DNA of 64,000 nucleotides from a phage: sequence record PZ452579.1; one strand, written 5' to 3'. Shown here piece after piece: positions 25,533 through 55,968 of the stretch (positions are counted from its first letter, which is position 1; each line of letters begins with the position of its first letter). Under the pieces are notes generated by a model. That model made no database searches. It saw only the letters and a program-made list of their open reading frames with translations, and was not told the origin of the DNA. The position numbers and the translations under genes were made by a program.

Positions 25533-26633
25533 TTACGCTGTGAAGATTTTATCCCACATCGCAACAACTGCATCTCGGTTATACTTCTTCCATACTGCTT
25601 CAGCACGTTTAACTCGAGCTTCGTACGTGTCAGTGAATTCTAATACAGCTTTTGTGTAAAGCGCAACTACTTCTTTCTTAGGAGTAGAGGAATCAATTTC
25701 TACACGCACAGTATCTGGGTCGTATTCAAATGTCGCATGAGGATAATCCTTAAAAACTAACTGGATTACAGGGACACCTTTAGAGATGGCTTCAATAGAA
25801 CTATTCTCTACCGTACCTGTGTCAGGACACGTATTAATAAGTGCTTTAGCTGTTTTAAGACGTTCCATGATTTCACTGTGTGGAGCATCAATAATAACAG
25901 GATACTTAGCCGGTGGTGCCCATTTGCTTGGACAATAACCAATACCATTTTCGCCTAGTGCTTTAATCGCTTCAAGAGCAACATCAGTACGACGCATTTT
26001 AGTGTCATAACGTTGTGCACTAATAATCAGATCAGTCGCCGGAAGAACTTCAGGTTTCTCATTCAAACAAATAACCGGATAATCTTCGGCTTCAAACAAC
26101 GGATTTGCTCGCCAATAATCATAATCAATTTTGTCAGTCAGACCTGAAGTCATATGACAATATTTGCGTTCAAATTCACGGAAGGCTTTAGTAGGAGCAT
26201 AACTCTTACCACCATTCTTATGAATTTGAATAGTCTGGTCCCAAATTTGAACAATGCCACGAGATACCGGTTCAAATGGTGTTGCCATAAAATTCTTATG
26301 AACTTTAGAGAGACCTGCGTCTTTAATTGCCTGAACGGTTAGTTTAGTCGGTTCCATAGTAACAACAAAATCGTATTCATGGATGCCGGCTAGTTCAACA
26401 ATCTTACGAGCCATAGTATAACTCATACCTAGACTGAATTTAGTCAGATGACCAACAGGATGATGATTAACTTTCCAATCACCAAATGTGTCATTATCAA
26501 AACCGATATAATCAATATCGGCACCAATAGAAACTAAATATTTCAACACATTTAAATGTACTGCTTCAAGACCACCTTGTACACGGTCAGGATTAAATGG
26601 GACTGCACGAGATGGGATAAACATAACTTTCAT
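25533..26633 (-). CDS. putative DNA-modifying glycosyltransferase (candidate hmC sugar transferase)
   Basis: 366 aa MKVMFIPSRAVPFNPDRVQGGLEAVHLNVLKYL...; sits between rIIA.1 and gene 39 where T4 has gene 60/mobA; GT assignment rests on position and recalled RB69-type literature, not on a visible motif. Confidence 0.55.
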   Translation of the reverse strand: MKVMFIPSRAVPFNPDRVQGGLEAVHLNVLKYLVSIGADIDYIGFDNDTFGDWKVNHHPVGHLTKFSLGMSYTMARKIVELAGIHEYDFVVTMEPTKLTVQAIKDAGLSKVHKNFMATPFEPVSRGIVQIWDQTIQIHKNGGKSYAPTKAFREFERKYCHMTSGLTDKIDYDYWRANPLFEAEDYPVICLNEKPEVLPATDLIISAQRYDTKMRRTDVALEAIKALGENGIGYCPSKWAPPAKYPVIIDAPHSEIMERLKTAKALINTCPDTGTVENSSIEAISKGVPVIQLVFKDYPHATFEYDPDTVRVEIDSSTPKKEVVALYTKAVLEFTDTYEARVKRAEAVWKKYNRDAVVAMWDKIFTA

Positions 26634-46667: not shown

Positions 46668-47216
46668 TTAACGAGCCCATTTGATGATTTCTGTAATCAA
46701 ATCATTACGTTCGCTTGCATTAAATCCTATAACTTTGTTAGCACCATCATGATTAAGTAATTGATACGTTTGGATTTTGTTATGAATTGCAAACTCTTCA
46801 AAATGTGAAATGACTGTATTAAAACCGAATGAAGACAAAGTAATAAGGTCGTCTTCAAAACTTTCAGTCATTTCGTTACGTGTTAAAATAATTGTGAACA
46901 CATCATGGTTTTGGCAAAGACGAATATAATCCTGTTCATAAACGTCAAGAACCGAGTCCGCATCTTGTCGAATACGTCCATAAACCCAGTTACTAATATA
47001 TCCACGGTCTAACAGATAAATCTTAGTAGGGTCTAAATAATTCAACATCGTTTCGAAACAGCCAACTTCGTTTCGAGACTTAACATCGAAACGTCCATCA
47101 ACTGTTCGTTTAGGGAAATCAATCTTTACATATCTTTCACTAATTTCCATTATGTCATTAATGAAAGTTGTTTTACCAGCATTATCCGGGCCATCTACTA
47201 AAATAATTTTAGCCAT
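46668..47216 (-). CDS. P-loop kinase, thymidylate/dNMP-kinase-like
   Basis: 182 aa; Walker A ILVDGPDNAGKTT and DR(G)Y-like LLDRGYIS; occupies the T4 beta-gt position. Confidence 0.6.
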   Translation of the reverse strand: MAKIILVDGPDNAGKTTFINDIMEISERYVKIDFPKRTVDGRFDVKSRNEVGCFETMLNYLDPTKIYLLDRGYISNWVYGRIRQDADSVLDVYEQDYIRLCQNHDVFTIILTRNEMTESFEDDLITLSSFGFNTVISHFEEFAIHNKIQTYQLLNHDGANKVIGFNASERNDLITEIIKWAR

Positions 47217-47217
47217 T

Positions 47218-48117
47218 TTATTCCTCGATTACGACATCTTCGTATTTAGGTATATTATACGGCGAAGAAATTAAAGCATTAAAGTAGATGAACTCACCAA
47301 GACCTGGATGGAATACTTCTTCAGGATTTTCGAAATATTGAATCTTCGGACGTCCTTTAAGAATTTGATAGTACTCAGTTTTAGTCGGTTTAAAAATTCG
47401 AATCAGCGCTTCTTCAGGATACTTATTTCTGTCGAAGCTATTATTTGGATCGGTTATATAAAGCGGTTGACCTAATTGAATTGCACATTCAACCACTTGT
47501 TCAAAACGATAGCATGGGTCACTAATTCGAAATGGATGAAAAATACCATCTAGATGAATAGGAGCCAAATCACCTACAAGACGCTGCATGATGGAAGGAC
47601 GTATAACTTTCTGGGTTATGATAATCTTATTACCATCGGCACCAGCGTTAACCAGCACTTCCTTTTGACGTTTATTCAACACAGTTGTTTGGATTGAACG
47701 ATTAACCGACAACATGTCGGTTTTTAAGAATTCGTCAATATAAAAACGTGGTTTATTAGGGTCTGCGGTGATATTGAAATTGAATTCTACATCAAAAGCG
47801 CCGTCATATCCAGTGATATCTGTGATTAGAAAATCACAATCATAATAAGCAATTAATGAATCAACCACAAATTCATTTTCAGACCAGAAATATTTACGAG
47901 TGTTATACGCGTTATCTTTATACCATAATGGAACAAACTTAAATTCTGGGAAAAGACGTTCACATTCTTTAATATCAGATGCATTACGTGGATATGTAAT
48001 CACATCACCTGGATTAGCACGGTGCAAATGAAGTTGGAAGTTGCCATCCTTAAGGATAGCATACTGTCCAGTTTCATAAGACCGCATACTCAAGATAGGT
48101 ACGCGGAAAATAGCCAT
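47218..48117 (-). CDS. hypothetical protein, translationally coupled to gp42-like gene
   Basis: 299 aa; ATG overlaps the gp42-like stop (TAATG); no recognisable motif. Confidence 0.6.
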   Translation of the reverse strand: MAIFRVPILSMRSYETGQYAILKDGNFQLHLHRANPGDVITYPRNASDIKECERLFPEFKFVPLWYKDNAYNTRKYFWSENEFVVDSLIAYYDCDFLITDITGYDGAFDVEFNFNITADPNKPRFYIDEFLKTDMLSVNRSIQTTVLNKRQKEVLVNAGADGNKIIITQKVIRPSIMQRLVGDLAPIHLDGIFHPFRISDPCYRFEQVVECAIQLGQPLYITDPNNSFDRNKYPEEALIRIFKPTKTEYYQILKGRPKIQYFENPEEVFHPGLGEFIYFNALISSPYNIPKYEDVVIEE

Positions 48118-48833
48118 TAGTCAAGGAATCCTTTAACATAATCAAAATCACGTTCAAACACATGGGCACTTACCATGGTATGAGTATAATCACCAACTTC
48201 TACACCACATTCGTTAGCGATATAATGAAGTAATTTTCCTTGGAGATAAAAATCCAACTGCATAACAACAGCACAGTTCTGAGAACGCATATGACAGTGG
48301 GTATAAAGCTTACCATCGCGAATATAATAAGTCACTGAGTCAGTACATGGATATTCAAGTGTTTCGTCCGAATCAAGCAAAGCCTGATCAGAACTTTCTA
48401 GAATTTGGAACACAACTCTTCGAGAGTTAGGCTTCTCTTTAAGTTCTTTTAGAAGAGCTGGTAATTGGGCTGCAATGCGAGGACCATAGAAAGTGTTGAA
48501 GTTCGCAGGCAAAGCATCTGATTTTGGTTTAGAAATAAATTTAGCGACATTAGGATATGCCTTAAACGCTTCTTCTGCATCAGTACCACCAGAAATCATA
48601 AATTTCCAGAAGTCTTCGGCATATTCATAAGAGATGCGGTTAATACGTGGGTCGGTCATTTTGAATGATGATGGAGTGTCAACAACTACTGTCATAGACC
48701 CAATTTCATTACAACGTCCAATACGAGAATCAGTTACGAATTCCGGGTTTTCTAAAATTTCACGATTGACTGCTTTAAATGCGGCTTGAAAATCTGCGGC
48801 TTTGATATATTTCATTGTGTTATGTTTTCCCAT
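48117..48833 (-). CDS. 42: thymidylate-synthase-family pyrimidine hydroxymethylase (divergent gp42-like dCMP hydroxymethylase)
   Basis: 238 aa; TS-fold signatures NSRRVVFQ, EYPCTDS, HMRSQNCAVVMQLDF, GVEVGDYTHTMVSAHVF; SD GAGGT upstream. Confidence 0.7.
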   Translation of the reverse strand: MGKHNTMKYIKAADFQAAFKAVNREILENPEFVTDSRIGRCNEIGSMTVVVDTPSSFKMTDPRINRISYEYAEDFWKFMISGGTDAEEAFKAYPNVAKFISKPKSDALPANFNTFYGPRIAAQLPALLKELKEKPNSRRVVFQILESSDQALLDSDETLEYPCTDSVTYYIRDGKLYTHCHMRSQNCAVVMQLDFYLQGKLLHYIANECGVEVGDYTHTMVSAHVFERDFDYVKGFLD

Positions 48834-48874
48834 GTTTACCTCAATACAGTTATTATATACTCAATTCATAAAGC

Positions 48875-49114
48875 TTATTTGAATTTCTTGGCAATGTTGA
48901 TATAACGTAAAGCTTCAGCATCGATACTTCCAAGAACACTATGAAGAAATGCATCAGCGTAATATTCTAGTTGAACAGGTTCTTTAATCACTTTAGCCGC
49001 TTTGGTTTCAAACAGGCCCATAAGGGCCTTTTTAAGAATTTGTTCGTTAGTGTTCAGTTTCATAGTCAAAATCTCTTCATTAAGTTGGTGGTTAAAAGTT
49101 TTTCTAGAAATCAT
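48875..49114 (-). CDS. hypothetical protein
   Basis: 79-aa ORF; ATGA overlap with upstream stop. Confidence 0.45.
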   Translation of the reverse strand: MISRKTFNHQLNEEILTMKLNTNEQILKKALMGLFETKAAKVIKEPVQLEYYADAFLHSVLGSIDAEALRYINIAKKFK

Positions 49115-50286
49115 TCTGGGTACCTCAAAGCGTCGTCAGAGTTAGTTATATCAATAATAGATATAGAATTTTCTGATAACCCGTTTTTAGATAACTGACG
49201 TTTATAATATCTTTCACAATATGTACACGTCGTCCCGCAGATTTCATTAGCACAATCGAAATCTGGATGTCTGAACCACCTTTTTTCTAAAAAGCCATCT
49301 AACAAAGAGGTTTCAATATTTACTGTATGTGAAAACTCGGTCTCATTTTCAAGAGTGAAAATAGTCTCTAAAGGCTTCCACAGTTCTAACAAATTACCTT
49401 CAAACTTTTCAGAAGCGTATGCTTCAAGAACTTTCAAAATGTAGTCTGTGCTACCTGTACGTCCTGAAACTTTGAATTGAGTGATACCGATATCATTATA
49501 AAGTTTCAAATCTTGAGGACGAACAAAACGAGTTCTCAACCAGTTAAATGGGTCTGTATCACGAGCTTTAATACAGTGCTGCATTGGATATCCGTTTAAG
49601 GATTTAGCATCATCAGCTGTAACATCAGTACTATGGAAAATATAGCAAGAGTCACGATAGCTACAATGTGTTGTATACCCTTTACCAGCATTAGAACAGA
49701 ACTCATTTACAAGAACTTCAAATATTATATTGTTCTTATTGCAAAACTCTGCTGCACGCTTCAGGAAAGAAACTGAACGGTTCTTATGAATTCCGCAACA
49801 GACCTTTTTGATATTATATTGGTCATGCAAGTATTTGATTTGAGTTACAGCATCGACATGTAGAATTGTTGAAACTTCAATCTCAATGTCTTTATTGACT
49901 TCACGAACAATTTCCATAACAACAGGGTTAGCGATAGTAATACGCCATACGCCTATTGACCAAAGATACTGAACATAATCCTGAATAGCTTTCTTCTTCC
50001 ACTCAACTAGTTCTCTTTTTGAACCAGGATTTATCGTGTTGAGCGTATAGTTAAAGCAAATACCTAATTCGTTACAACGTTTAACGTAATCTTCTAACAT
50101 CTTTTTGTCAACGTCAGGAAGCCTAAAATCAGGTCTGGCTGCTACAAAAGCCATTTCTCTTGTAGAGCCGTATACTTCGTTTATCAAGCTATTAGGATAA
50201 GTTTTATTGAGCTCTACGATTTTATCAAGAAGAGCTAAATCAAAATTCGTTCCGATTTTAAAAGTATTCATTTTTTTGCATCTCAC
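49111..50286 (-). CDS. hypothetical Cys-rich protein, candidate modification enzyme
   Basis: 391 aa; C-terminal cluster CANEICGTTCTYCERYY (Cx4Cx3Cx2C), possible metal or Fe-S site. Confidence 0.6.
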   Translation of the reverse strand: MRCKKMNTFKIGTNFDLALLDKIVELNKTYPNSLINEVYGSTREMAFVAARPDFRLPDVDKKMLEDYVKRCNELGICFNYTLNTINPGSKRELVEWKKKAIQDYVQYLWSIGVWRITIANPVVMEIVREVNKDIEIEVSTILHVDAVTQIKYLHDQYNIKKVCCGIHKNRSVSFLKRAAEFCNKNNIIFEVLVNEFCSNAGKGYTTHCSYRDSCYIFHSTDVTADDAKSLNGYPMQHCIKARDTDPFNWLRTRFVRPQDLKLYNDIGITQFKVSGRTGSTDYILKVLEAYASEKFEGNLLELWKPLETIFTLENETEFSHTVNIETSLLDGFLEKRWFRHPDFDCANEICGTTCTYCERYYKRQLSKNGLSENSISIIDITNSDDALRYPE

Positions 50287-50327
50287 GTTAATTGATGCGA
50301 TGGTTTTTGCAGGTCTTACTTAAATTA

Positions 50328-50729
50328 TTATAGATTCGGTTTATATGATTTAAATGTTTCGAATTCGCCTTTATTCATAAGAGCTTTGAATTCGTCAGGA
50401 CGCATAGCTTTGTCGTCGATAATCCAATCATATACTGGTTTATGTGTTAGCAAATTATGGTACTTTAAGCCAATGTTTGCCAAGTTCTGGATCAGACTTG
50501 GGAGAATGTCAATTGCTATACGACCAGGACCTACTGACTTCATACCGCGAGCAGTGTAAAGCGTTATGGTATGCCCTGCATCATACAGGGCATTAATGGC
50601 AGACACCATTTCGACGTCTGGTTTGAAGTTCACGTAATCACGATTGTTATTCCACTCTGTTATACAATCATCGACATCAAAACAAAGATTAAGCATGTTT
50701 TCTACACGGTGCATTAGATTCGTTCCCAT
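50328..50729 (-). CDS. HAD-superfamily phosphatase-like protein
   Basis: 133 aa; motif I LCFDVDDCIT (DxDxT); small KdsC-like size. Confidence 0.6.
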   Translation of the reverse strand: MGTNLMHRVENMLNLCFDVDDCITEWNNNRDYVNFKPDVEMVSAINALYDAGHTITLYTARGMKSVGPGRIAIDILPSLIQNLANIGLKYHNLLTHKPVYDWIIDDKAMRPDEFKALMNKGEFETFKSYKPNL

Positions 50730-52399
50730 TGATGAGTGATATCGCCACCGATTGGACGATAGGAAACACCAGTTTCTTTATCAGTTAGTACCCATTTACC
50801 AGGATTTTTTGTAATCAGAGTAGCCGTTACAGGTTCTGCTACGTCATAACTAATAGAGCCGTCTTGAAGTACACGGCCCATATTACGTAATTGCTTAGTC
50901 AGAAGTTCCATACCTTTATAATATGCGGCTACCGCTTTAAGTGGATTATTCTTGAAATAACCACCTAATGCAATCCAGATAATTGCCACTGCCAAATGAT
51001 GATACTCGTTAAACGAACTCATCTTTCCATATTTGTAAACTAATGGATTGATGTTAATAGTCACATTACAAGTTGTTTCATCAATAGTAAACTGTCCCCA
51101 GGTCGGATTAGCGTTGAATTCATCATAACCTGAAACAGCATAAAGCACTTTAGCTTCATCGTACAATTTTGGCCCGTAAATCTTGGTTTCGCCAAAATAT
51201 CCACGAGGGTCGATAAACTTGACTTCGCCGTTATCAGTAATCATAGTATTACTGAAGTTCGGGTCACCATGAATAACAGAGTACTGTCCCTGAGAACGGT
51301 TATGATAACGAATAAGGTGTTCTAAAGCTTGTTTCAGCATTGGCTTCAGACGTCCAATCTTAGTGTAGTTCACATGTGTGATTTTACCAAATGAATCAAT
51401 CAATGGTTGAATGCTTTCACAACGATCAATAACTTTCGTATAGAATTCTTTAGTGAAATCACGACGAACAGTTTCAGGACTTACAAAATAAGTGTCTGTG
51501 CTGAATTTCAGTGCATCTAAAATTGCATCAACAATTTGTGGACGAGCAAGACTTGATTTGGATTTAATATATTCAAATGCCGGCTTACCTTTAATGCGTT
51601 CCATTTCAAAGTTATTTTCATTAACAGAAACTAACTGAGGAACTGAATCTGATTTCACTTTAAGATACCATGAAATCTCATCTTTCTGAAGAGCTCGGCC
51701 CTGTTCGGTTAATGCGAATTTAGTTACAGTTTCTTCACCAATTTCAACTGCATTAAAACTACGATTAAGTTCACGAACTTCATGAGCTTTTTCAAGTTTA
51801 GGCATATCACCTAAATCAATTAGATTCATAAGCTCTGATTTATTGAATGCACTGCCGTAAAGGAATTCTACGAAATCACGTCCTTTGCAGTATTCGTGAA
51901 TTTCCTCATCAGTAGAACCCATGTAGAATTCCCAGTCTTTGAACTGATAAATTCCTACAACATTACCACCTGTTGAACCTACGTTAGTGATATTTTCACC
52001 GTCGAAATTATATCGACATTCGTCACCCTTAACATAGATTGCGTTAACATTCCAAGACCATGAACCAAAATCAGGAATAATATCACACCAGTTAACAATT
52101 ACATTATGGCCGTCTAAATCTTTGTGTAATTTAGCAAGAGCATAAGCAGAACCATACGCTTCATCAACTGTACGAATAGTCACATTGAACCCTTCTTGCT
52201 CACAATAAGCTCGAACAGTTTCAGCAAATTTTGAATGAACTACTACAATAATTTCATCTGCGCCAAGGTCAGAATAAATTGTATACAAATTGCTCAGAAT
52301 AGTGTCTTGTTTATAGTTCACAAGAACTTTTGGAATATGGTGAGTAATTGGATATAAACGAGTTGCCAGTCCAGCACCAAGAATAACAGCTTTTTTCAT
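50714..52399 (-). CDS. bifunctional sugar-1-phosphate nucleotidyltransferase / APH-like (anomeric) sugar kinase
   Basis: 561 aa; N-terminal AVILGAGLATRLYPIT (RmlA-like G-x-G-x-R-L); C-terminal VIHGDPNFSNTMI and FIDPRGYFGE (APH/choline-kinase Brenner and DFG-like motifs). Confidence 0.7.
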   Translation of the reverse strand: MKKAVILGAGLATRLYPITHHIPKVLVNYKQDTILSNLYTIYSDLGADEIIVVVHSKFAETVRAYCEQEGFNVTIRTVDEAYGSAYALAKLHKDLDGHNVIVNWCDIIPDFGSWSWNVNAIYVKGDECRYNFDGENITNVGSTGGNVVGIYQFKDWEFYMGSTDEEIHEYCKGRDFVEFLYGSAFNKSELMNLIDLGDMPKLEKAHEVRELNRSFNAVEIGEETVTKFALTEQGRALQKDEISWYLKVKSDSVPQLVSVNENNFEMERIKGKPAFEYIKSKSSLARPQIVDAILDALKFSTDTYFVSPETVRRDFTKEFYTKVIDRCESIQPLIDSFGKITHVNYTKIGRLKPMLKQALEHLIRYHNRSQGQYSVIHGDPNFSNTMITDNGEVKFIDPRGYFGETKIYGPKLYDEAKVLYAVSGYDEFNANPTWGQFTIDETTCNVTININPLVYKYGKMSSFNEYHHLAVAIIWIALGGYFKNNPLKAVAAYYKGMELLTKQLRNMGRVLQDGSISYDVAEPVTATLITKNPGKWVLTDKETGVSYRPIGGDITHQWERI

Positions 52400-52440
52400 G
52401 TTGAAGTCCTCATTGGTAAGTAGGAGTATTGTACACTATT

Positions 52441-52584
52441 CTAGTTAAAGCATTCATACTTTGCTTGTAGTCCAATCATAATCCATCCAATTACAAGTGT
52501 TGGAATCATTACTGGAGCCGTTAAGCTCCAGTAGATAGTCATGACAAGCATCAATAGTAAAAGTCCTATTGTTATTGCTTTCAT
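52441..52584 (-). CDS. small membrane protein (not in ORF track)
   Basis: 47 aa MKAITIGLLLLMLVMTIYWSLTAPVMIPTLVIGWIMIGLQAKYECFN; ATGA overlap with SIS gene stop. Confidence 0.45.
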   Translation of the reverse strand: MKAITIGLLLLMLVMTIYWSLTAPVMIPTLVIGWIMIGLQAKYECFN

Positions 52585-53216
52585 TGTTCGCCTCGTAACA
52601 TGGCACCTAGTGCACCGCCTGGATGGAACTTAAGGAAATCATTAGAGGTAAATCCGCGTTCAGACGAAAGGTTGATAGCGAACGTATCGATAAGCGCTAA
52701 CAACAATGTAGTAGACATTGTCGGAGCTAAAGAGTTCTCGTCAACTTCTACCGCGATACCGGTACAGAACGTATAATCAAAAAGAGCTTCGTATTCTTGT
52801 GGAATGTCAGGGTTACAATGTAACAGAATCTGTTTAACCTGAGGACGAATCATACGAAGATGTTTAGCAACACCTATCATTTCTTCAGTCTTACCAGAAC
52901 GACTGATGTGAATCAACACATCATTAGGTGCAATAAATCCTGCGTCACCATGAGAATAATGCCCAGTGTTCAAATACATGCTAGGAATACCTAGTGAAGC
53001 AAAAGTCTCGGAAGCTTTAGTTGCGATATTAGCATTCTTACCAACACCTGTAATAATTACACGACTTTCATAATTACTCAGTCCAGGGCGACGAAGAGTT
53101 TCAAGAATAGCATTATATCGGGCAGGGTTTTGACTAATTACTTTAGCCATAGTGGCAAGAGATGAAGCTTGTTTTACGATTGCGTCAATAGCGATAGTGA
53201 TTGGTGTAGTTTTCAT
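52581..53216 (-). CDS. SIS-domain sugar-phosphate isomerase, KdsD-like arabinose-5-phosphate isomerase
   Basis: 211 aa; GVGKNANIATKASETFASLG, SHGDAGFI, ISRSGKTEE, LAPTMSTT, FHPGGALG, closely paralleling E. coli KdsD SIS-domain motifs; no CBS domains. Confidence 0.8.
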   Translation of the reverse strand: MKTTPITIAIDAIVKQASSLATMAKVISQNPARYNAILETLRRPGLSNYESRVIITGVGKNANIATKASETFASLGIPSMYLNTGHYSHGDAGFIAPNDVLIHISRSGKTEEMIGVAKHLRMIRPQVKQILLHCNPDIPQEYEALFDYTFCTGIAVEVDENSLAPTMSTTLLLALIDTFAINLSSERGFTSNDFLKFHPGGALGAMLRGEQ

Positions 53217-53256
53217 ATTTCTCTCATTTAATTAGTTGGCCGTCCTTGGCATTATA

Positions 53257-55968
53257 TCAAAAATCAAACATATCGAACAGAGATGCTTTCTTCTCGTAAT
53301 CGAGTTTCGCTGCTGATGTGAATCCTTCAAGCGGTTTAATAAATGTCTTCTCAAGGAGAACAGTGTAGTCCATCCAATGAAGTACATCATCTTTGATTAA
53401 ATCAGTGATTTCCGTACCAGAAGGCCATGCGATACATTTATCACCGAATGGGTTTCCTTCACGTAAAGGCAGAACATATACTTTTTCACCTTCTACAACT
53501 TGTGGAGCATCAATATTACCTTTGATAGCCCGGTTATATGTCAGAATTCCACGAATATGGAACGGGCATTTAGGTCCTGGATATCCACCTACATCATATT
53601 TAGCAATGTTATTCGCAGAAGATACCGACGCGATGCTAATATAATTCAATTGACGGAATTCTTTTTCAAACTCTTTAAAATATTCTTGTAATGATTCTTC
53701 ACCTTCTTGAAGCATACGACGAATACATTCTTTAAGAGCTTTCTGTACTGCTTTAGGAGTCGAAGATTTCTGAGTCTCTAGACCCATGATTTTGAGTTTA
53801 GGCTCAGCGTATCTGGTTCCTTCCATATCCCACACGTTTAATGCATAACGTTTCTTACCAGTCCAGAATCCACCAATACCTTTAGAACCGAGCGGAGGAC
53901 CAGCGATAGCTTCTCGGTCCATGAACATTAAGTGTTGTTTATTGTTCATGTATTCACACATTTCACGGAAACCTTTATCAATAGCTGGTTCCATACGTTC
54001 ACGTGCAAACTTATCTAAGAAGTCTACCCAATGGTTGGTATCACGGAATTTAGATTCACCAACCTTATCGATAATTTTATCAGCAGATACGTAAATAGAG
54101 TCTGTATCACCATAAAGAACGAAAGCTTCACCTTCTGTACCACAAACTTCATTCAGATATTCATTAACTTTACGTTCAATCCACTGTAAAGCCATTTGAC
54201 CAAATGTTGTGATTGCAGTAGCATTACGCAAATCATAATAACGGAACCAAACGTTGCCAAGTGCACCATAAAGTGAGTTGATAAGCAATTTACGGTTAAT
54301 CTGTGCAGTCATACCTGCAACTTCAGTACGTTGAGCTCTAAACAACATTTCATTAAGAGATTTAGCAGACAACTTTTTAATCTTTTCTTTAATCTCATCA
54401 CTGAAGTCGAAACGATAATCAACATCTAATGGTTCGTCAACAGAAAGATTAGGATTATGTAAGGCCTCTTTAATTATTTCACCATTACGTTGAGCCGCAA
54501 GCATATAACCTTTATGTTCTTTACGTTGATTAAAGACTTTAGTGATTTCAGTTGGAACAACACCGTCACGGTCTTTATAATACATCATGCCGTTAGGAGA
54601 ACAACTGTACACATCAGAAGGACGTTCAGCAACAGCGTTAATATAATCATGTAATGGAGCTACTTTAAACGTTCCTGCTATTGTTTCTGGGCTAATATTC
54701 ACTTGGCGAATGATGCTTGGATACAGAGATGTTAGGTCGAAGCTCATCACATATTTGTATCGATTTGGAATAGGTTCCTTAACAAAAGCACCCGGGTAAG
54801 GTTGAACTGGATGCGAACGACCTTGTGGAATCACCTTGTTTTGTTCTTTAAGGCTATTAAAAATAATAGCGTCCCACGTTTTAATTGGGCTAAACACAGA
54901 TTGAATCTGTATCTTAGCATAATAACCCATGTCCAAGCTCAAGTTAATGAACTGACGCTTAGCATCAATTTGCAATACACGATACACGTCGATAATGTTA
55001 TAAGAAATATATCGTTGGTGATTGCTTTCACGAAGCTTAGAAATAGGGCCATCATATTTCAGTTTACCAACGTTCAATTCAAATTCTGAAATGTAATCCA
55101 GAGAATACGACGGTTGATTGGTAAAAGAGAATTTTTTGTAAAGGTCGATGTAATCAAGAACAGAGATACCGAACAATGTAATGATTTCTCGTGAACCATA
55201 CATGTTTTCAATAACTTTAACACGAGTCTTGCGATGTGGTGACAACCGTTTTGCTGTGGATTCGCCAAAAATATTCTTGATTCGGTTATACACATATGGA
55301 ATATCAAATGACTCAACGTTCCATCCAGTCAAAATGACAGGAGTTTTCTGTTGCCAGAAGTTGAGATATTCCATCAACAATTCTTTTTCGTTATCGAACG
55401 GCATATAAATGATTTTATCGATAATTTCAGATGGAACTTCATCACCGCCTTGTTCTTGAAGCTTAGCAGCGATTTCAATAGACCATTCTTCTACATTACC
55501 ATATGGAGAATTCAATAGATCAAATACGTAGAACCTGTCGTCAATTGAGTCATAATGGGTGATAGCATCAATCGGATGTTTTGCTTGTGACGGCTCAGGG
55601 AACCCGTCCGGAGATGTTACTTCGATGTCGAAGTTAGCCACACGAATTTTTGTATGGTCGTATTTGATTTCATAGTTATAAGTGTCAGACAAATACGCCA
55701 ATTTGAAATCGTCCATGCCAAGTGCTTCAAGTCCGATATCTTCCATGCGTTTAATCCATTGTGAGGCATCACGCATATTAGCGAACAACTTACGAGTACA
55801 CGGCTTACCGTAGATATCGAAATATTTCGTAGCCTGACTTTCTGGACAATGAGCAAACAGTGATGGTTTATATTCTACTTCACGAGTACGTTCACGGCCG
55901 TTAGAATCGATGTAACGTTCAAAAATTGAATCACCGATCTGTTCAACCGTTAAGTAAAATTCTTTCAT
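53257..55968 (-). CDS. 43: DNA polymerase gp43 (family B), RB69-type
   Basis: 903 aa; MKEFYLTVEQIGDSIFERYIDSNGRERTREVEYKPSLFAHCPESQATKYFDIYGKPCTRKLFANMRDASQW...; exo motif FDIE, pol motifs DTDS, KILINSLYG. Confidence 0.97.
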   Translation of the reverse strand: MKEFYLTVEQIGDSIFERYIDSNGRERTREVEYKPSLFAHCPESQATKYFDIYGKPCTRKLFANMRDASQWIKRMEDIGLEALGMDDFKLAYLSDTYNYEIKYDHTKIRVANFDIEVTSPDGFPEPSQAKHPIDAITHYDSIDDRFYVFDLLNSPYGNVEEWSIEIAAKLQEQGGDEVPSEIIDKIIYMPFDNEKELLMEYLNFWQQKTPVILTGWNVESFDIPYVYNRIKNIFGESTAKRLSPHRKTRVKVIENMYGSREIITLFGISVLDYIDLYKKFSFTNQPSYSLDYISEFELNVGKLKYDGPISKLRESNHQRYISYNIIDVYRVLQIDAKRQFINLSLDMGYYAKIQIQSVFSPIKTWDAIIFNSLKEQNKVIPQGRSHPVQPYPGAFVKEPIPNRYKYVMSFDLTSLYPSIIRQVNISPETIAGTFKVAPLHDYINAVAERPSDVYSCSPNGMMYYKDRDGVVPTEITKVFNQRKEHKGYMLAAQRNGEIIKEALHNPNLSVDEPLDVDYRFDFSDEIKEKIKKLSAKSLNEMLFRAQRTEVAGMTAQINRKLLINSLYGALGNVWFRYYDLRNATAITTFGQMALQWIERKVNEYLNEVCGTEGEAFVLYGDTDSIYVSADKIIDKVGESKFRDTNHWVDFLDKFARERMEPAIDKGFREMCEYMNNKQHLMFMDREAIAGPPLGSKGIGGFWTGKKRYALNVWDMEGTRYAEPKLKIMGLETQKSSTPKAVQKALKECIRRMLQEGEESLQEYFKEFEKEFRQLNYISIASVSSANNIAKYDVGGYPGPKCPFHIRGILTYNRAIKGNIDAPQVVEGEKVYVLPLREGNPFGDKCIAWPSGTEITDLIKDDVLHWMDYTVLLEKTFIKPLEGFTSAAKLDYEKKASLFDMFDF

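Follow-up and report, generated by a model that had tools for sequence, protein, structure and literature searches.

The phage sequence record PZ452579.1 was analysed as one stretch of 64,000 nucleotides (the window), in which a block of minus-strand genes lies next to the gene for DNA polymerase. The block corresponds to the published cluster for arabinosylated 5-hydroxycytosine in phage DNA and includes a gene for a 386- or 391-aa protein of the Peptidase_U32 family (the U32 protein), whose role seems to be the part that has gone unreported. The locus as a whole is, with good confidence, best explained as this published cluster together with a U32 protein that would serve as an oxygen-independent, prephenate-dependent hydroxylase.

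An earlier note on the same DNA had described a compact module of five minus-strand open reading frames (ORFs), joined by short overlaps, that would make an activated arabinose for the glycosylation of phage DNA. All five ORFs, their coordinates and overlaps as well as the motifs quoted for them were verified within 49111-53216 (Table 1). The gene for a SIS-domain isomerase overlaps that for a 47-aa peptide by 4 nt, the gene for a 561-aa fusion protein overlaps that for a HAD phosphatase by 16 nt, and a further 4 nt are shared by the U32 gene and a downstream ORF of 79 aa. The block is flanked by DNA polymerase on one side and by a thymidylate synthase (TS) homologue, a glycosyltransferase, a thymidylate-kinase-like (Tmk-like) kinase and uvsX on the other, and its base composition is ordinary for the window.

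Over positions 49000-53300, nucleotide identity to the best-matching phage records is 97.8-98.4%. For the block, 155 phage records (Mosigvirus, RB69-like) fall into the 95-99% identity band and 158 phage records cover at least 80% of it, a conservation far beyond chance. The adjacent DNA polymerase and the block itself point to a T-even phage of the genus Mosigvirus, similar to RB69, HY126 and Bas46, as the source. The block is about 98% identical to Bas46 at the nucleotide level and its proteins are 97-100% identical to those of HY126; the set of SIS protein, AfhE-type fusion, AfhF-type HAD phosphatase, TS-type hydroxylase, glycosyltransferase and Tmk-like kinase between gene 43 and uvsX is orthologous and in the order of Bas46. 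By this homology, the region 46668-53216 is identified as the cytosine hypermodification cluster of the source phage.

Table 1. Genes and ORFs of the cluster, in positions of the window (Ru5P, ribulose-5-phosphate; Ara5P, arabinose-5-phosphate; Ara-1-P, arabinose-1-phosphate)
Feature	Coordinates	Strand	Remarks
Thymidylate-kinase-like nucleotide kinase, 182 aa	46668-47216	minus	RB69 gp45 equivalent; phrog_761 'thymidylate kinase' 1.9e-45
DNA arabinosyltransferase 1 candidate, 299 aa	47218-48117	minus	RB69 gp46:47 equivalent; phrog_3891 5.8e-156; Lee et al. 2026, Table 1
TS homologue, flavin/O2-dependent 5-hydroxy-dCMP synthase	48117-48833	minus	RB69 gp48 equivalent; 'gp42-like' gene of the earlier note
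Conserved 79-aa ORF, phrog_8601	48875-49114	minus	Overlaps the U32 stop codon; slot of chorismate mutase in most related phages
Peptidase_U32-family Fe-S protein	49111-50271	minus	386 aa from ATG; RB69 gp50 equivalent; alternative GTG start at 50286, 391 aa
AfhF-type Mg-dependent HAD phosphatase, 133 aa	50328-50729	minus	RB69 gp51 equivalent; Ara-1,5-bisphosphate to Ara-1-P
AfhE-type bifunctional nucleotidyltransferase-kinase fusion, 561 aa	50714-52399	minus	RB69 gp52:53 equivalent
Small membrane peptide, 47 aa	52441-52584	minus	Homologue of the T4 49-aa ORF at the imm.1 position, gene 42-imm
CBS-less SIS-domain D-arabinose-5-phosphate isomerase, 211 aa	52581-53216	minus	RB69 gp55 equivalent; Ru5P to Ara5P

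Arabinose supply and base hydroxylation

Arabinose was found in RB69 DNA by Thomas et al. 2018 (PMC6024577), who assigned it as arabinosyl-hydroxymethylcytosine (ara-hmC), singled out the gene 43-uvsX module, showed that ORF053c and ORF052c are one gene of 561 residues and put forward ORF055c and ORF53_52c as candidate enzymes for UDP-arabinose. The record of the BASEL phage Bas46 already annotates the genes as 'UDP-arabinose biosynthesis'. Mass spectrometry (MS) and nuclear magnetic resonance (NMR) have since identified mono- and poly-arabosylated 5-hydroxycytosine in the DNA of RB69 and DLP3, in which an ether bond joins the sugar straight to C5 with no methylene bridge (Lee et al. 2026, PMC13326640). 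In the same study, dC was found to be fully replaced by arabinosylated cytidines, the DNA of DLP3 to be tri-arabinosylated and RB69 gp45-gp55 to be the modification cluster, with a dCTPase listed in its Table 1. An independent liquid chromatography-MS (LC-MS) study of the Mosigvirus NP found 5-ara-dC and 5-ara-ara-dC and called the earlier hmC assignment erroneous, and the LC-MS and NMR literature reports arabinosyl-5-hydroxy-dC in the virion DNA of RB69, NP and Bas46/47. This published biochemistry transfers to the source phage because the fusion protein is 97% identical to AfhE of phage HY126 and the U32 protein 100% identical to its HY126 counterpart, which is labelled hypothetical there. 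The arabinose pathway of the block is already known, and nothing is new in the finding as the earlier note had framed it. Its end product, an NDP-arabinose for phage DNA glycosylation, agrees with the HY126 and RB69 literature and with the near-identity of the proteins; its statement that the route to the donor is not biochemically established has been overtaken by Lee et al. 2026, by He et al. 2026 as far as Lee et al. summarise that work, and by the structures 9iqc and 9iqw.

The SIS protein carries the motifs GVGKN, ISRSGKTEE and FHPGGALG and matches the Pfam SIS profile (4e-10) and the NCBIfam profiles KpsF/GutQ (5e-32) and KdsD (2e-30). KpsF, KdsD and GutQ lead its NCBIfam matches and no GmhA model is among them, which places the protein outside the heptose isomerases. 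It remains below the KpsF/GutQ and KdsD equivalog cut-offs because the CBS pair is absent, with 106 bits as against the curated 505 bits of a KdsD/GutQ-type model; Pfam and NCBIfam scans found no CBS domain in its 211 residues. The PDB matches (3etn at 7e-25, 5uqi and 2xhz) are all catalytic domains of arabinose-5-phosphate isomerases, and phrog_5670, 'arabinose 5-phosphate isomerase', is matched at 1.5e-116. The protein is best described, as the earlier note had it, as a truncated, stand-alone variant of this isomerase, comparable to 3etn of B. fragilis, and its role in converting Ru5P to Ara5P was proposed by Lee et al. 2026 (PMC13326640).

The assignment of the 561-aa protein as a sugar-1-phosphate nucleotidyltransferase fused to a kinase also stands. 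It contains the motifs GAGLATRLYPIT, HGDPNFSN and IDPRGYFGE; residues 3-99 match Pfam NTP_transferase (8.5e-10) alongside NCBIfam sugar-1-phosphate nucleotidyltransferases, and residues ~308-409 give weak, sub-threshold kinase matches (fructosamine kinase, EcKL, RIO). The choline/LicAC families do not accommodate it: the LicC structure 1jyk gives a weak N-terminal match only (2e-5 over 94 residues), and the orthologue has UDP-arabinose activity. The C-terminal domain is APH/choline-kinase-like and phosphorylates Ara5P at C1, and the N-terminal domain forms UDP-arabinofuranose from Ara-1-P and UTP, activities carried over from the HY126 orthologue. The gene is one intact ORF here (50714-52399), whereas in the RB69 reference it is split into ORF052c and ORF053c by a sequencing error. 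The HAD phosphatase, likewise recognised in the earlier note, shows the motif DVDDCIT, matches the NCBIfam capsule biosynthesis phosphatases EcbF/BcbF (4e-13) and is near-identical to PDB 9iqw (7.8e-88), with 1xpj following at 5e-10.

In the published pathway, which carries over by near-identity, Ru5P is diverted to D-arabinose-5-phosphate by the SIS protein and phosphorylated to arabinofuranose-1,5-bisphosphate by the kinase domain of the fusion; the HAD phosphatase removes the 5-phosphate, and the nucleotidyltransferase domain turns the resulting Ara-1-P into UDP-arabinofuranose. This order follows the work on phage HY126 by He et al. 2026, in the part summarised by Lee et al. 2026 (PMC13326640), where Ara5P is the substrate from which the kinase forms Ara-1,5-bisphosphate and AfhF, the HAD protein, converts arabinofuranose-1,5-bisphosphate to Ara-1-P. 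The earlier note had drawn another scheme, in which Ara5P is dephosphorylated to free arabinose, phosphorylated at C1, activated to NDP-arabinose and then used to glycosylate hmC. The domain content of the proteins fits this scheme, the same step order is given in Table 1 of Lee et al. 2026 as an earlier bioinformatic proposal, and ara-hmC had been reported by Thomas et al. 2018 (PMC6024577). Its first step and its end product hold, but the kinase and phosphatase substrates described in the summary of He et al. 2026 leave no place for a dephosphorylation ahead of C1 phosphorylation or for a free-arabinose intermediate, and the HAD protein resembles the heptose-1,7-bisphosphate phosphatase GmhB. 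The part concerning the base had already been refuted by the C5-linked 5-hydroxycytosine seen in NMR and MS, with the hmC assignment called erroneous, and D169N in the TS homologue and its near-identity to a solved hydroxylase speak against it here as well. As a whole, the scheme is very improbable.

The TS homologue matches PDB 9iqc, 9ir2 and 9iqu at 4.5e-162 and is near-identical to 9iqc. Aligned to ThyA of E. coli and gp42 of T4 (ThyA numbering), it has the changes D169N, N177D and L143E and keeps the catalytic Cys146, the aligned segments at the signature sites being SQNCA, QLDFY, TLEYP and YPCTD. D169 is kept in T4 gp42, and the TS homologue has Asn at the same position. On this alignment the protein carries the published signature of a 5-hydroxycytosine (5hoC) synthase and not that of the gp42 hydroxymethylase. 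The acceptor is 5-hydroxycytosine and not hydroxymethylcytosine, the base named in the earlier note. Its RB69 equivalent gp48 makes 5-hydroxy-dCMP (5hodCMP) using flavin and O2, the latter shown by 18O2 labelling (Lee et al. 2026, PMC13326640).

The arabinosyltransferase candidate has no Pfam match and adjoins the TS homologue in all T4-like loci examined. Its gene (47218-48117) is one intact ORF; gp46/47 of the RB69 reference is split by a sequencing error, according to the literature. The 182-aa kinase gives a weak NCBIfam match to dTMP kinase and is listed in Table 1 of Lee et al. 2026. In the sequence of events published for these phages, which likewise carries over by near-identity, dCMP is hydroxylated at C5 by the TS homologue with flavin and O2, the 5-hydroxy-dCMP is phosphorylated and incorporated in place of dC, and 5-hydroxycytosine in the DNA is then arabinosylated by glycosyltransferases, by which many nucleases are blocked.

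The U32-family protein

The ORF that the earlier note had listed as a 391-aa Cys-rich unknown encodes a protein of the Peptidase_U32 family of Fe-S proteins. It reaches 42.2 bits against Pfam PF01136 (gathering threshold 22.4; E 7.5e-11; residues 99-291), and its start is more probably the ATG at 50271, in line with the starts of its homologues and of the Bas46 annotation. Sequence and profile searches against the PDB gave nothing useful, and it was the fold search alone that led to 5d88, the only solved U32 protein. This is the top Foldseek PDB match (E 1e-7, TM score (target) 0.69) of an AlphaFold2 (AF2) model, a TIM-barrel predicted at a pLDDT (the confidence score of the model) of 92.9 from an alignment with 59 homologues.

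Ten cysteines are conserved across these homologues, including the invariant C158, C192, C203, C209, C233 and C340/345/349/352, the last four forming a C-terminal CX4CX3CX2C group in the phage family. E185, C192 and C209, invariant or at least 90% conserved, align with E162/C170/C177 of TrhP and E161/C169/C176 of RlhA; these residues, and C176 of UbiU, have been shown to be essential in the U32 family literature. The segment GYPmqhC233 matches GYPtlC232 of UbiU, and C192, C209 and C233 map to UbiU C169, C176 and C232. There is no cysteine at the position of UbiU C193, for which the invariant C203 in a family-specific insertion may substitute as the fourth cluster ligand. By the UbiU profile score and the BLASTP result given below, the phage U32 proteins are a subfamily separate from RlhA, TrhP, UbiU and UbiV.

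RlhA makes ho5C2501 in 23S rRNA and TrhP makes ho5U34 in tRNA, both in a prephenate-dependent and O2-independent manner, and prephenate is the oxygen donor in U32 hydroxylations. In E. coli, O2-dependent and O2-independent enzymes occur in pairs, TrhO with TrhP and UbiIHF with UbiUV. We infer, with confidence evenly divided for and against, that the phage U32 protein is a prephenate-dependent, O2-independent pyrimidine C5 hydroxylase, which would act on the nucleotide base and would not be a sugar enzyme. There is an even chance that it is the first viral U32 hydroxylase and the first for DNA precursors, a single polypeptide with two Fe-S clusters and with dCMP as the likeliest substrate. When oxygen is lacking, it would make the same or a related 5-hydroxypyrimidine nucleotide with prephenate as the oxygen donor, and 5-hydroxycytosine phages would have both an aerobic route through the TS homologue, flavin and O2 and an anaerobic route through U32 and prephenate. 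An O2-independent route would be needed for growth in the gut because all dC is replaced, the known hydroxylase needs O2 and a phage dCTPase is listed for these phages.

Lee et al. 2026 (PMC13326640) list the U32 gene in Table 1 as 'sugar or heterocycle reductase' only and do not mention U32, peptidase, prephenate or chorismate, though they cite the papers on RlhA and TrhP-type enzymes as 'other pyrimidine hydroxylation pathways'. A full-text literature search, with He et al. 2026 and Mahler et al. 2025 outside it, returned no paper that ties U32, prephenate or chorismate mutase to 5hoC in phages.

The genomic neighbours of U32 in other phages point to prephenate supply. Chorismate mutase (CM) and 3-deoxy-D-arabino-heptulosonate-7-phosphate (DAHP) synthase (DAHPS) near U32 were scored per domain, as CM-DAHPS fusion proteins otherwise bridge both profiles. 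In Winklervirus, the gene between U32 and the TS homologue encodes a true type II chorismate mutase (Pfam CM_2, 1.7e-11); a CM domain adjoins U32 in 15 of the 18 T4-like loci examined, and 54 of 54 phage-database matches to CM lie in U32-bearing genera, the annotations under the match fitting the U32-TS interval. In unrelated viral contigs, divergent U32 homologues (37-55% identical to the query) have neighbours within three genes on either side that are enriched in Thymidylate_kin (6), DAHP_synth_1 (5), CM_2 (4), dUTPase and uracil-DNA glycosylase (UDG), with Tmk-like genes being the commonest. DAHPS is rare in phages (11 of 50,697 phage records), and it or a DAHPS-CM fusion lies 0-2 genes from U32 in L005, L025, L037, L039, L041 and L050. 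CM_2 and/or DAHP synthase stand beside U32 in five different architectures, among them U32-DAHPS; U32 with a DAHPS-CM fusion; DAHPS-CM, HAD and U32; and U32 followed by a distant CM and Tmk. The DAHP_synth_1 neighbours were also considered as KdsA of the Kdo pathway, which was rejected after NCBIfam scans of two of them gave 237 bits for DAHP synthase as against 62 bits for KDO8P synthase. MT837090.1, a candidate counter-example with DAHPS-CM and no U32, is uninformative, as the contig ends at that gene; it is otherwise of the L042/L050 type. By this linkage, related phages would supply prephenate through their own adjacent chorismate mutase or DAHP synthase, while the source phage would rely on PheA/TyrA of the host.

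Within the cluster, U32 is the most conserved protein across genera (82-89%, compared with 73-82% for the TS homologue and 41-72% for AfhE). A survey of 100,044 species genomes turned up only 7 loci of the subfamily, all in obligate-anaerobe lineages and several of them clearly prophage-like, and there are 485 metagenomic clusters at E<=1e-30; by this distribution the subfamily can be called essentially viral. Acinetobacter phages account for 0 of 222 U32 records, compared with 57 fusion-bearing records, and Kimel was examined directly. Dhakaviruses of E. coli, JS10 among them, do not have U32 either. The full set of SIS protein, AfhE, HAD phosphatase, TS homologue and glycosyltransferase is nevertheless present in both groups. 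At the other end stands the operon of L039, with SIS-like, AfhE-like, Tmk-like, DAHPS-CM, HAD and U32 genes and no TS-type hydroxylase within 10 kb, and in phages whose hosts are obligate anaerobes the TS-type enzyme appears to be replaced by U32 alone. This three-way spread (TS only, both, U32 only) is the pattern expected of analogous enzymes for one step. A rule by which U32 is present whenever the host is a facultative anaerobe holds only partly: it fits the Acinetobacter phages, which are without U32, but the Dhakaviruses of E. coli are without it too.

The U32 protein could also be an accessory enzyme of the sugar branch, for example one that reduces, epimerises or ring-contracts an arabinose intermediate. 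Its gene does lie among the sugar genes, with the HAD phosphatase on one side and the TS homologue on the other, some divergent homologues adjoin AfhE-like, SIS and HAD genes, and it has been annotated both as a 'putative enzyme involved in UDP-arabinose biosynthesis' (BASEL) and as the reductase of Lee et al. 2026 quoted above. Yet the UDP-arabinofuranose pathway, as far as it is published in the summary of He et al. 2026, is complete without U32, and the Acinetobacter phages and Dhakaviruses manage without it even though the DNA of DLP3 is tri-arabinosylated. Elsewhere, U32 homologues are found near dCMP deaminase, Tmk, UDG, deoxynucleoside kinase (dNK) and NT5C with no sugar genes, the recurrent linkage to chorismate mutase or DAHP synthase would make no sense in pentose chemistry, and the precedents in the family are hydroxylations of aromatic compounds or pyrimidines. 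A sugar-branch role is unlikely on these grounds. About equally unlikely is a prephenate-dependent hydroxylase of host tRNA or rRNA (TrhP/RlhA-like) or of quinone (UbiU/V-like) that would tune translation or respiration during infection. All characterised members of the family act on RNA or ubiquinone precursors, and the CM linkage argues for the use of prephenate and not for a particular substrate. In every T4-like locus, however, the gene has nucleotide-modification genes on both sides, and elsewhere it is most often found near genes for nucleotide kinases, dUTPase, UDG and dCMP deaminase. RlhA (653 aa) and TrhP (453 aa) have C-terminal extensions that the phage protein lacks, and an E. coli host already possesses RlhA, TrhP and UbiU/V. 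A collagenase-like (PrtC) peptidase that processes phage or host proteins, as the Pfam, PHROG and GenBank names would have it, is scarcely credible given the absent protease catalytic apparatus, the ten conserved cysteines typical of Fe-S binding, the nucleotide-metabolism context and the reinterpretation of the family as hydroxylases.

Several points weigh against the U32 protein as a second, oxygen-independent hydroxylase and against parts of the overall explanation. In aerobic E. coli, the TS homologue alone suffices for 5hodC, and since Dhakaviruses infect E. coli without U32, the protein is not obligatory on a facultative anaerobe. Neither CM nor DAHPS occurs anywhere in the 64-kb window, so that prephenate would have to come from host PheA/TyrA. 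Of the canonical cluster cysteines, four in number, only three can be mapped, the remaining ligand being deduced from the insertion. The phage family is a distant relative of RlhA, TrhP and UbiU: the NCBIfam UbiU model gives 18 bits as against its cut-off of 440 bits, profile E-values are weak, and none of the four E. coli paralogues was matched significantly in BLASTP of the U32 protein. No U32 protein has been reported to hydroxylate anything in vitro, and the substrate could be dCMP, dCTP, dUMP or DNA. For the sugar branch, the step order is taken from the summary of He et al. 2026 in Lee et al. 2026, whose Table 1 keeps the older order.

If the U32 protein is indeed such a hydroxylase, it would account for growth under anoxic conditions in phages whose cytosine is entirely replaced by way of an O2-requiring hydroxylase. 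Host range or fitness would then be expected to depend on oxygen differently in phages with U32 (Mosigvirus, Winklervirus and others) and without it (Dhakavirus, Acinetobacter phages), which is relevant where phages are used therapeutically in the gut. Prephenate-dependent hydroxylation would also gain its most tractable model so far, a soluble enzyme that acts on a mononucleotide and is fed by a chorismate mutase of phage origin. Some 500-1,100 metagenomic clusters of the subfamily indicate that many viral operons for DNA hypermodification in anaerobes are still unexplored.

Small ORFs and further U32 loci

The 47-aa peptide, hydrophobic throughout, had been counted in the earlier note as a member of the module. 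Homologues were found by tblastn in 576 phage records including T4, T2, T6 and RB14, and the peptide co-occurs with the SIS/imm position and not with U32. A role as a component of the module or as a redox partner was rejected: because of the homologues in T4, T2 and T6 it is a generic T-even gene and no part of the pathway. The T4 counterpart MKSKIIAALLLILMIIISIYYSVTVPLMIPTIILGWSLLLLQVKYECIN (49 aa) lies between gene 42 and imm (KJ477684.1, ~26213-26362; L069, 4714-4863, minus strand). It is unannotated in KJ477684.1 and many other records and represents a widely conserved T-even micro-gene.

The 79-aa ORF has no Pfam match, even at E<=10, and no NCBIfam match. It was considered as a diverged chorismate mutase and rejected, with a BLASTP E-value of 0.15, a CM-HMM E-value of 0.04 (score -0.0) and coexistence with a true CM in L013, L018, L020 and L026. 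In phages of Yersinia, Pectobacterium and others, the gene order is U32-p79-CM-TS.

Other U32 loci show further associations. In Serratia phage LC53 and Erwinia phage Virsaitis27 (Winklervirus; L006/L007, 5352-5990), a Seg-like homing endonuclease gene lies between HAD and U32, and since the same spacing of 637 nt recurs in several other T4-like loci, the HAD-U32 junction is a recurrent insertion point. On a presumably viral JGI contig of 466 kb (L002, 9447-11086), the start of the U32 homologue is overlapped by the gene for a dCMP deaminase, with Tmk, UDG, MazG/dUTPase-like and PolIII-alpha genes nearby; this arrangement hints that dUMP, and not dCMP, may be what some phages hydroxylate. In jumbo-phage-like contigs and in metagenome-assembled genomes of Romboutsia (L042, L044, L047, L063, L066), U32 always has a conserved ORF of ~82 aa directly upstream, with a 399-aa protein, an AfhE-like protein and HAD following; this ORF has no family match and could encode a partner protein.

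In genomes of Bacillota, BRC1 and Phocaeicola (L003/L061, 7135-11098; L064, 4929-9086; L065, 3044-7137), U32 ends a conserved four-gene cassette after GP88 (PF17338), a guanylate-kinase-like/SAM methyltransferase fusion and a protein of ~270 aa. In L003, NT5C comes next after the cassette, and then genes for a PnuC-like transporter, dNK, a radical SAM protein, another U32 and a nucleoside deoxyribosyltransferase. By analogy with yrrMNO of B. subtilis, where hydroxylation is followed by O-methylation, the cassette may be a new system of nucleotide or DNA modification.

Comparison with known systems

The clusters of RB69 (gp45-gp55), HY126 (Afh), Bas46, Bas47 and NP have the same genes in the same order, with no substantive difference in the window; the genes for the fusion and the glycosyltransferase are frameshifted in the RB69 reference and both intact in the window. 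The glucosyl-hmC system of T4 occupies the same slot between gene 43 and uvsX and shares a TS-fold enzyme acting on dCMP, the glycosylation after replication and the anti-restriction role. T4 gp42 uses methylene-tetrahydrofolate and yields a hydroxymethyl group, whereas the TS homologue of the window, with D169N, is predicted to use flavin and O2 and to yield a hydroxyl. The sugar donor of T4 is the UDP-glucose of the host, while the arabinose donor is no host metabolite and is made by phage enzymes. T4 imm is absent from the window, in which the imm.1-like peptide is kept.

In the ADP-heptose pathway, the SIS isomerase GmhA, the bifunctional kinase/adenylyltransferase HldE and the HAD 1,7-bisphosphate phosphatase GmhB act together. 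The logic of the arabinose pathway is the same: a ketose phosphate is converted to an aldose phosphate, anomeric phosphorylation gives a bisphosphate, the distal phosphate is removed and the nucleotidyl transfer is carried out by the same bifunctional protein. The phage HAD is structurally similar to GmhB. By contrast, the phage SIS protein is KdsD/GutQ-like and not GmhA-like, the kinase is APH/choline-kinase-like and not ribokinase-like, the substrate is a pentose and the product a UDP-furanose. With KdsD, GutQ and KpsF the SIS protein shares the catalytic domain, but it has no C-terminal CBS pair and feeds a nucleotide sugar instead of Kdo.

The phage U32 protein has in common with RlhA, TrhP, UbiU and UbiV the Pfam U32 domain, the TIM-barrel and the Glu with two Cys, and it has a UbiU-like GYP motif; the linkage to prephenate supply and the pairing with an O2-dependent analogue are also traits of these enzymes. 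It differs from them in the C203 insertion, in the extra CX4CX3CX2C group and in lacking RNA-binding extensions, and its putative function would be directed at a deoxynucleotide as the presumed substrate, rather than at RNA or quinone.

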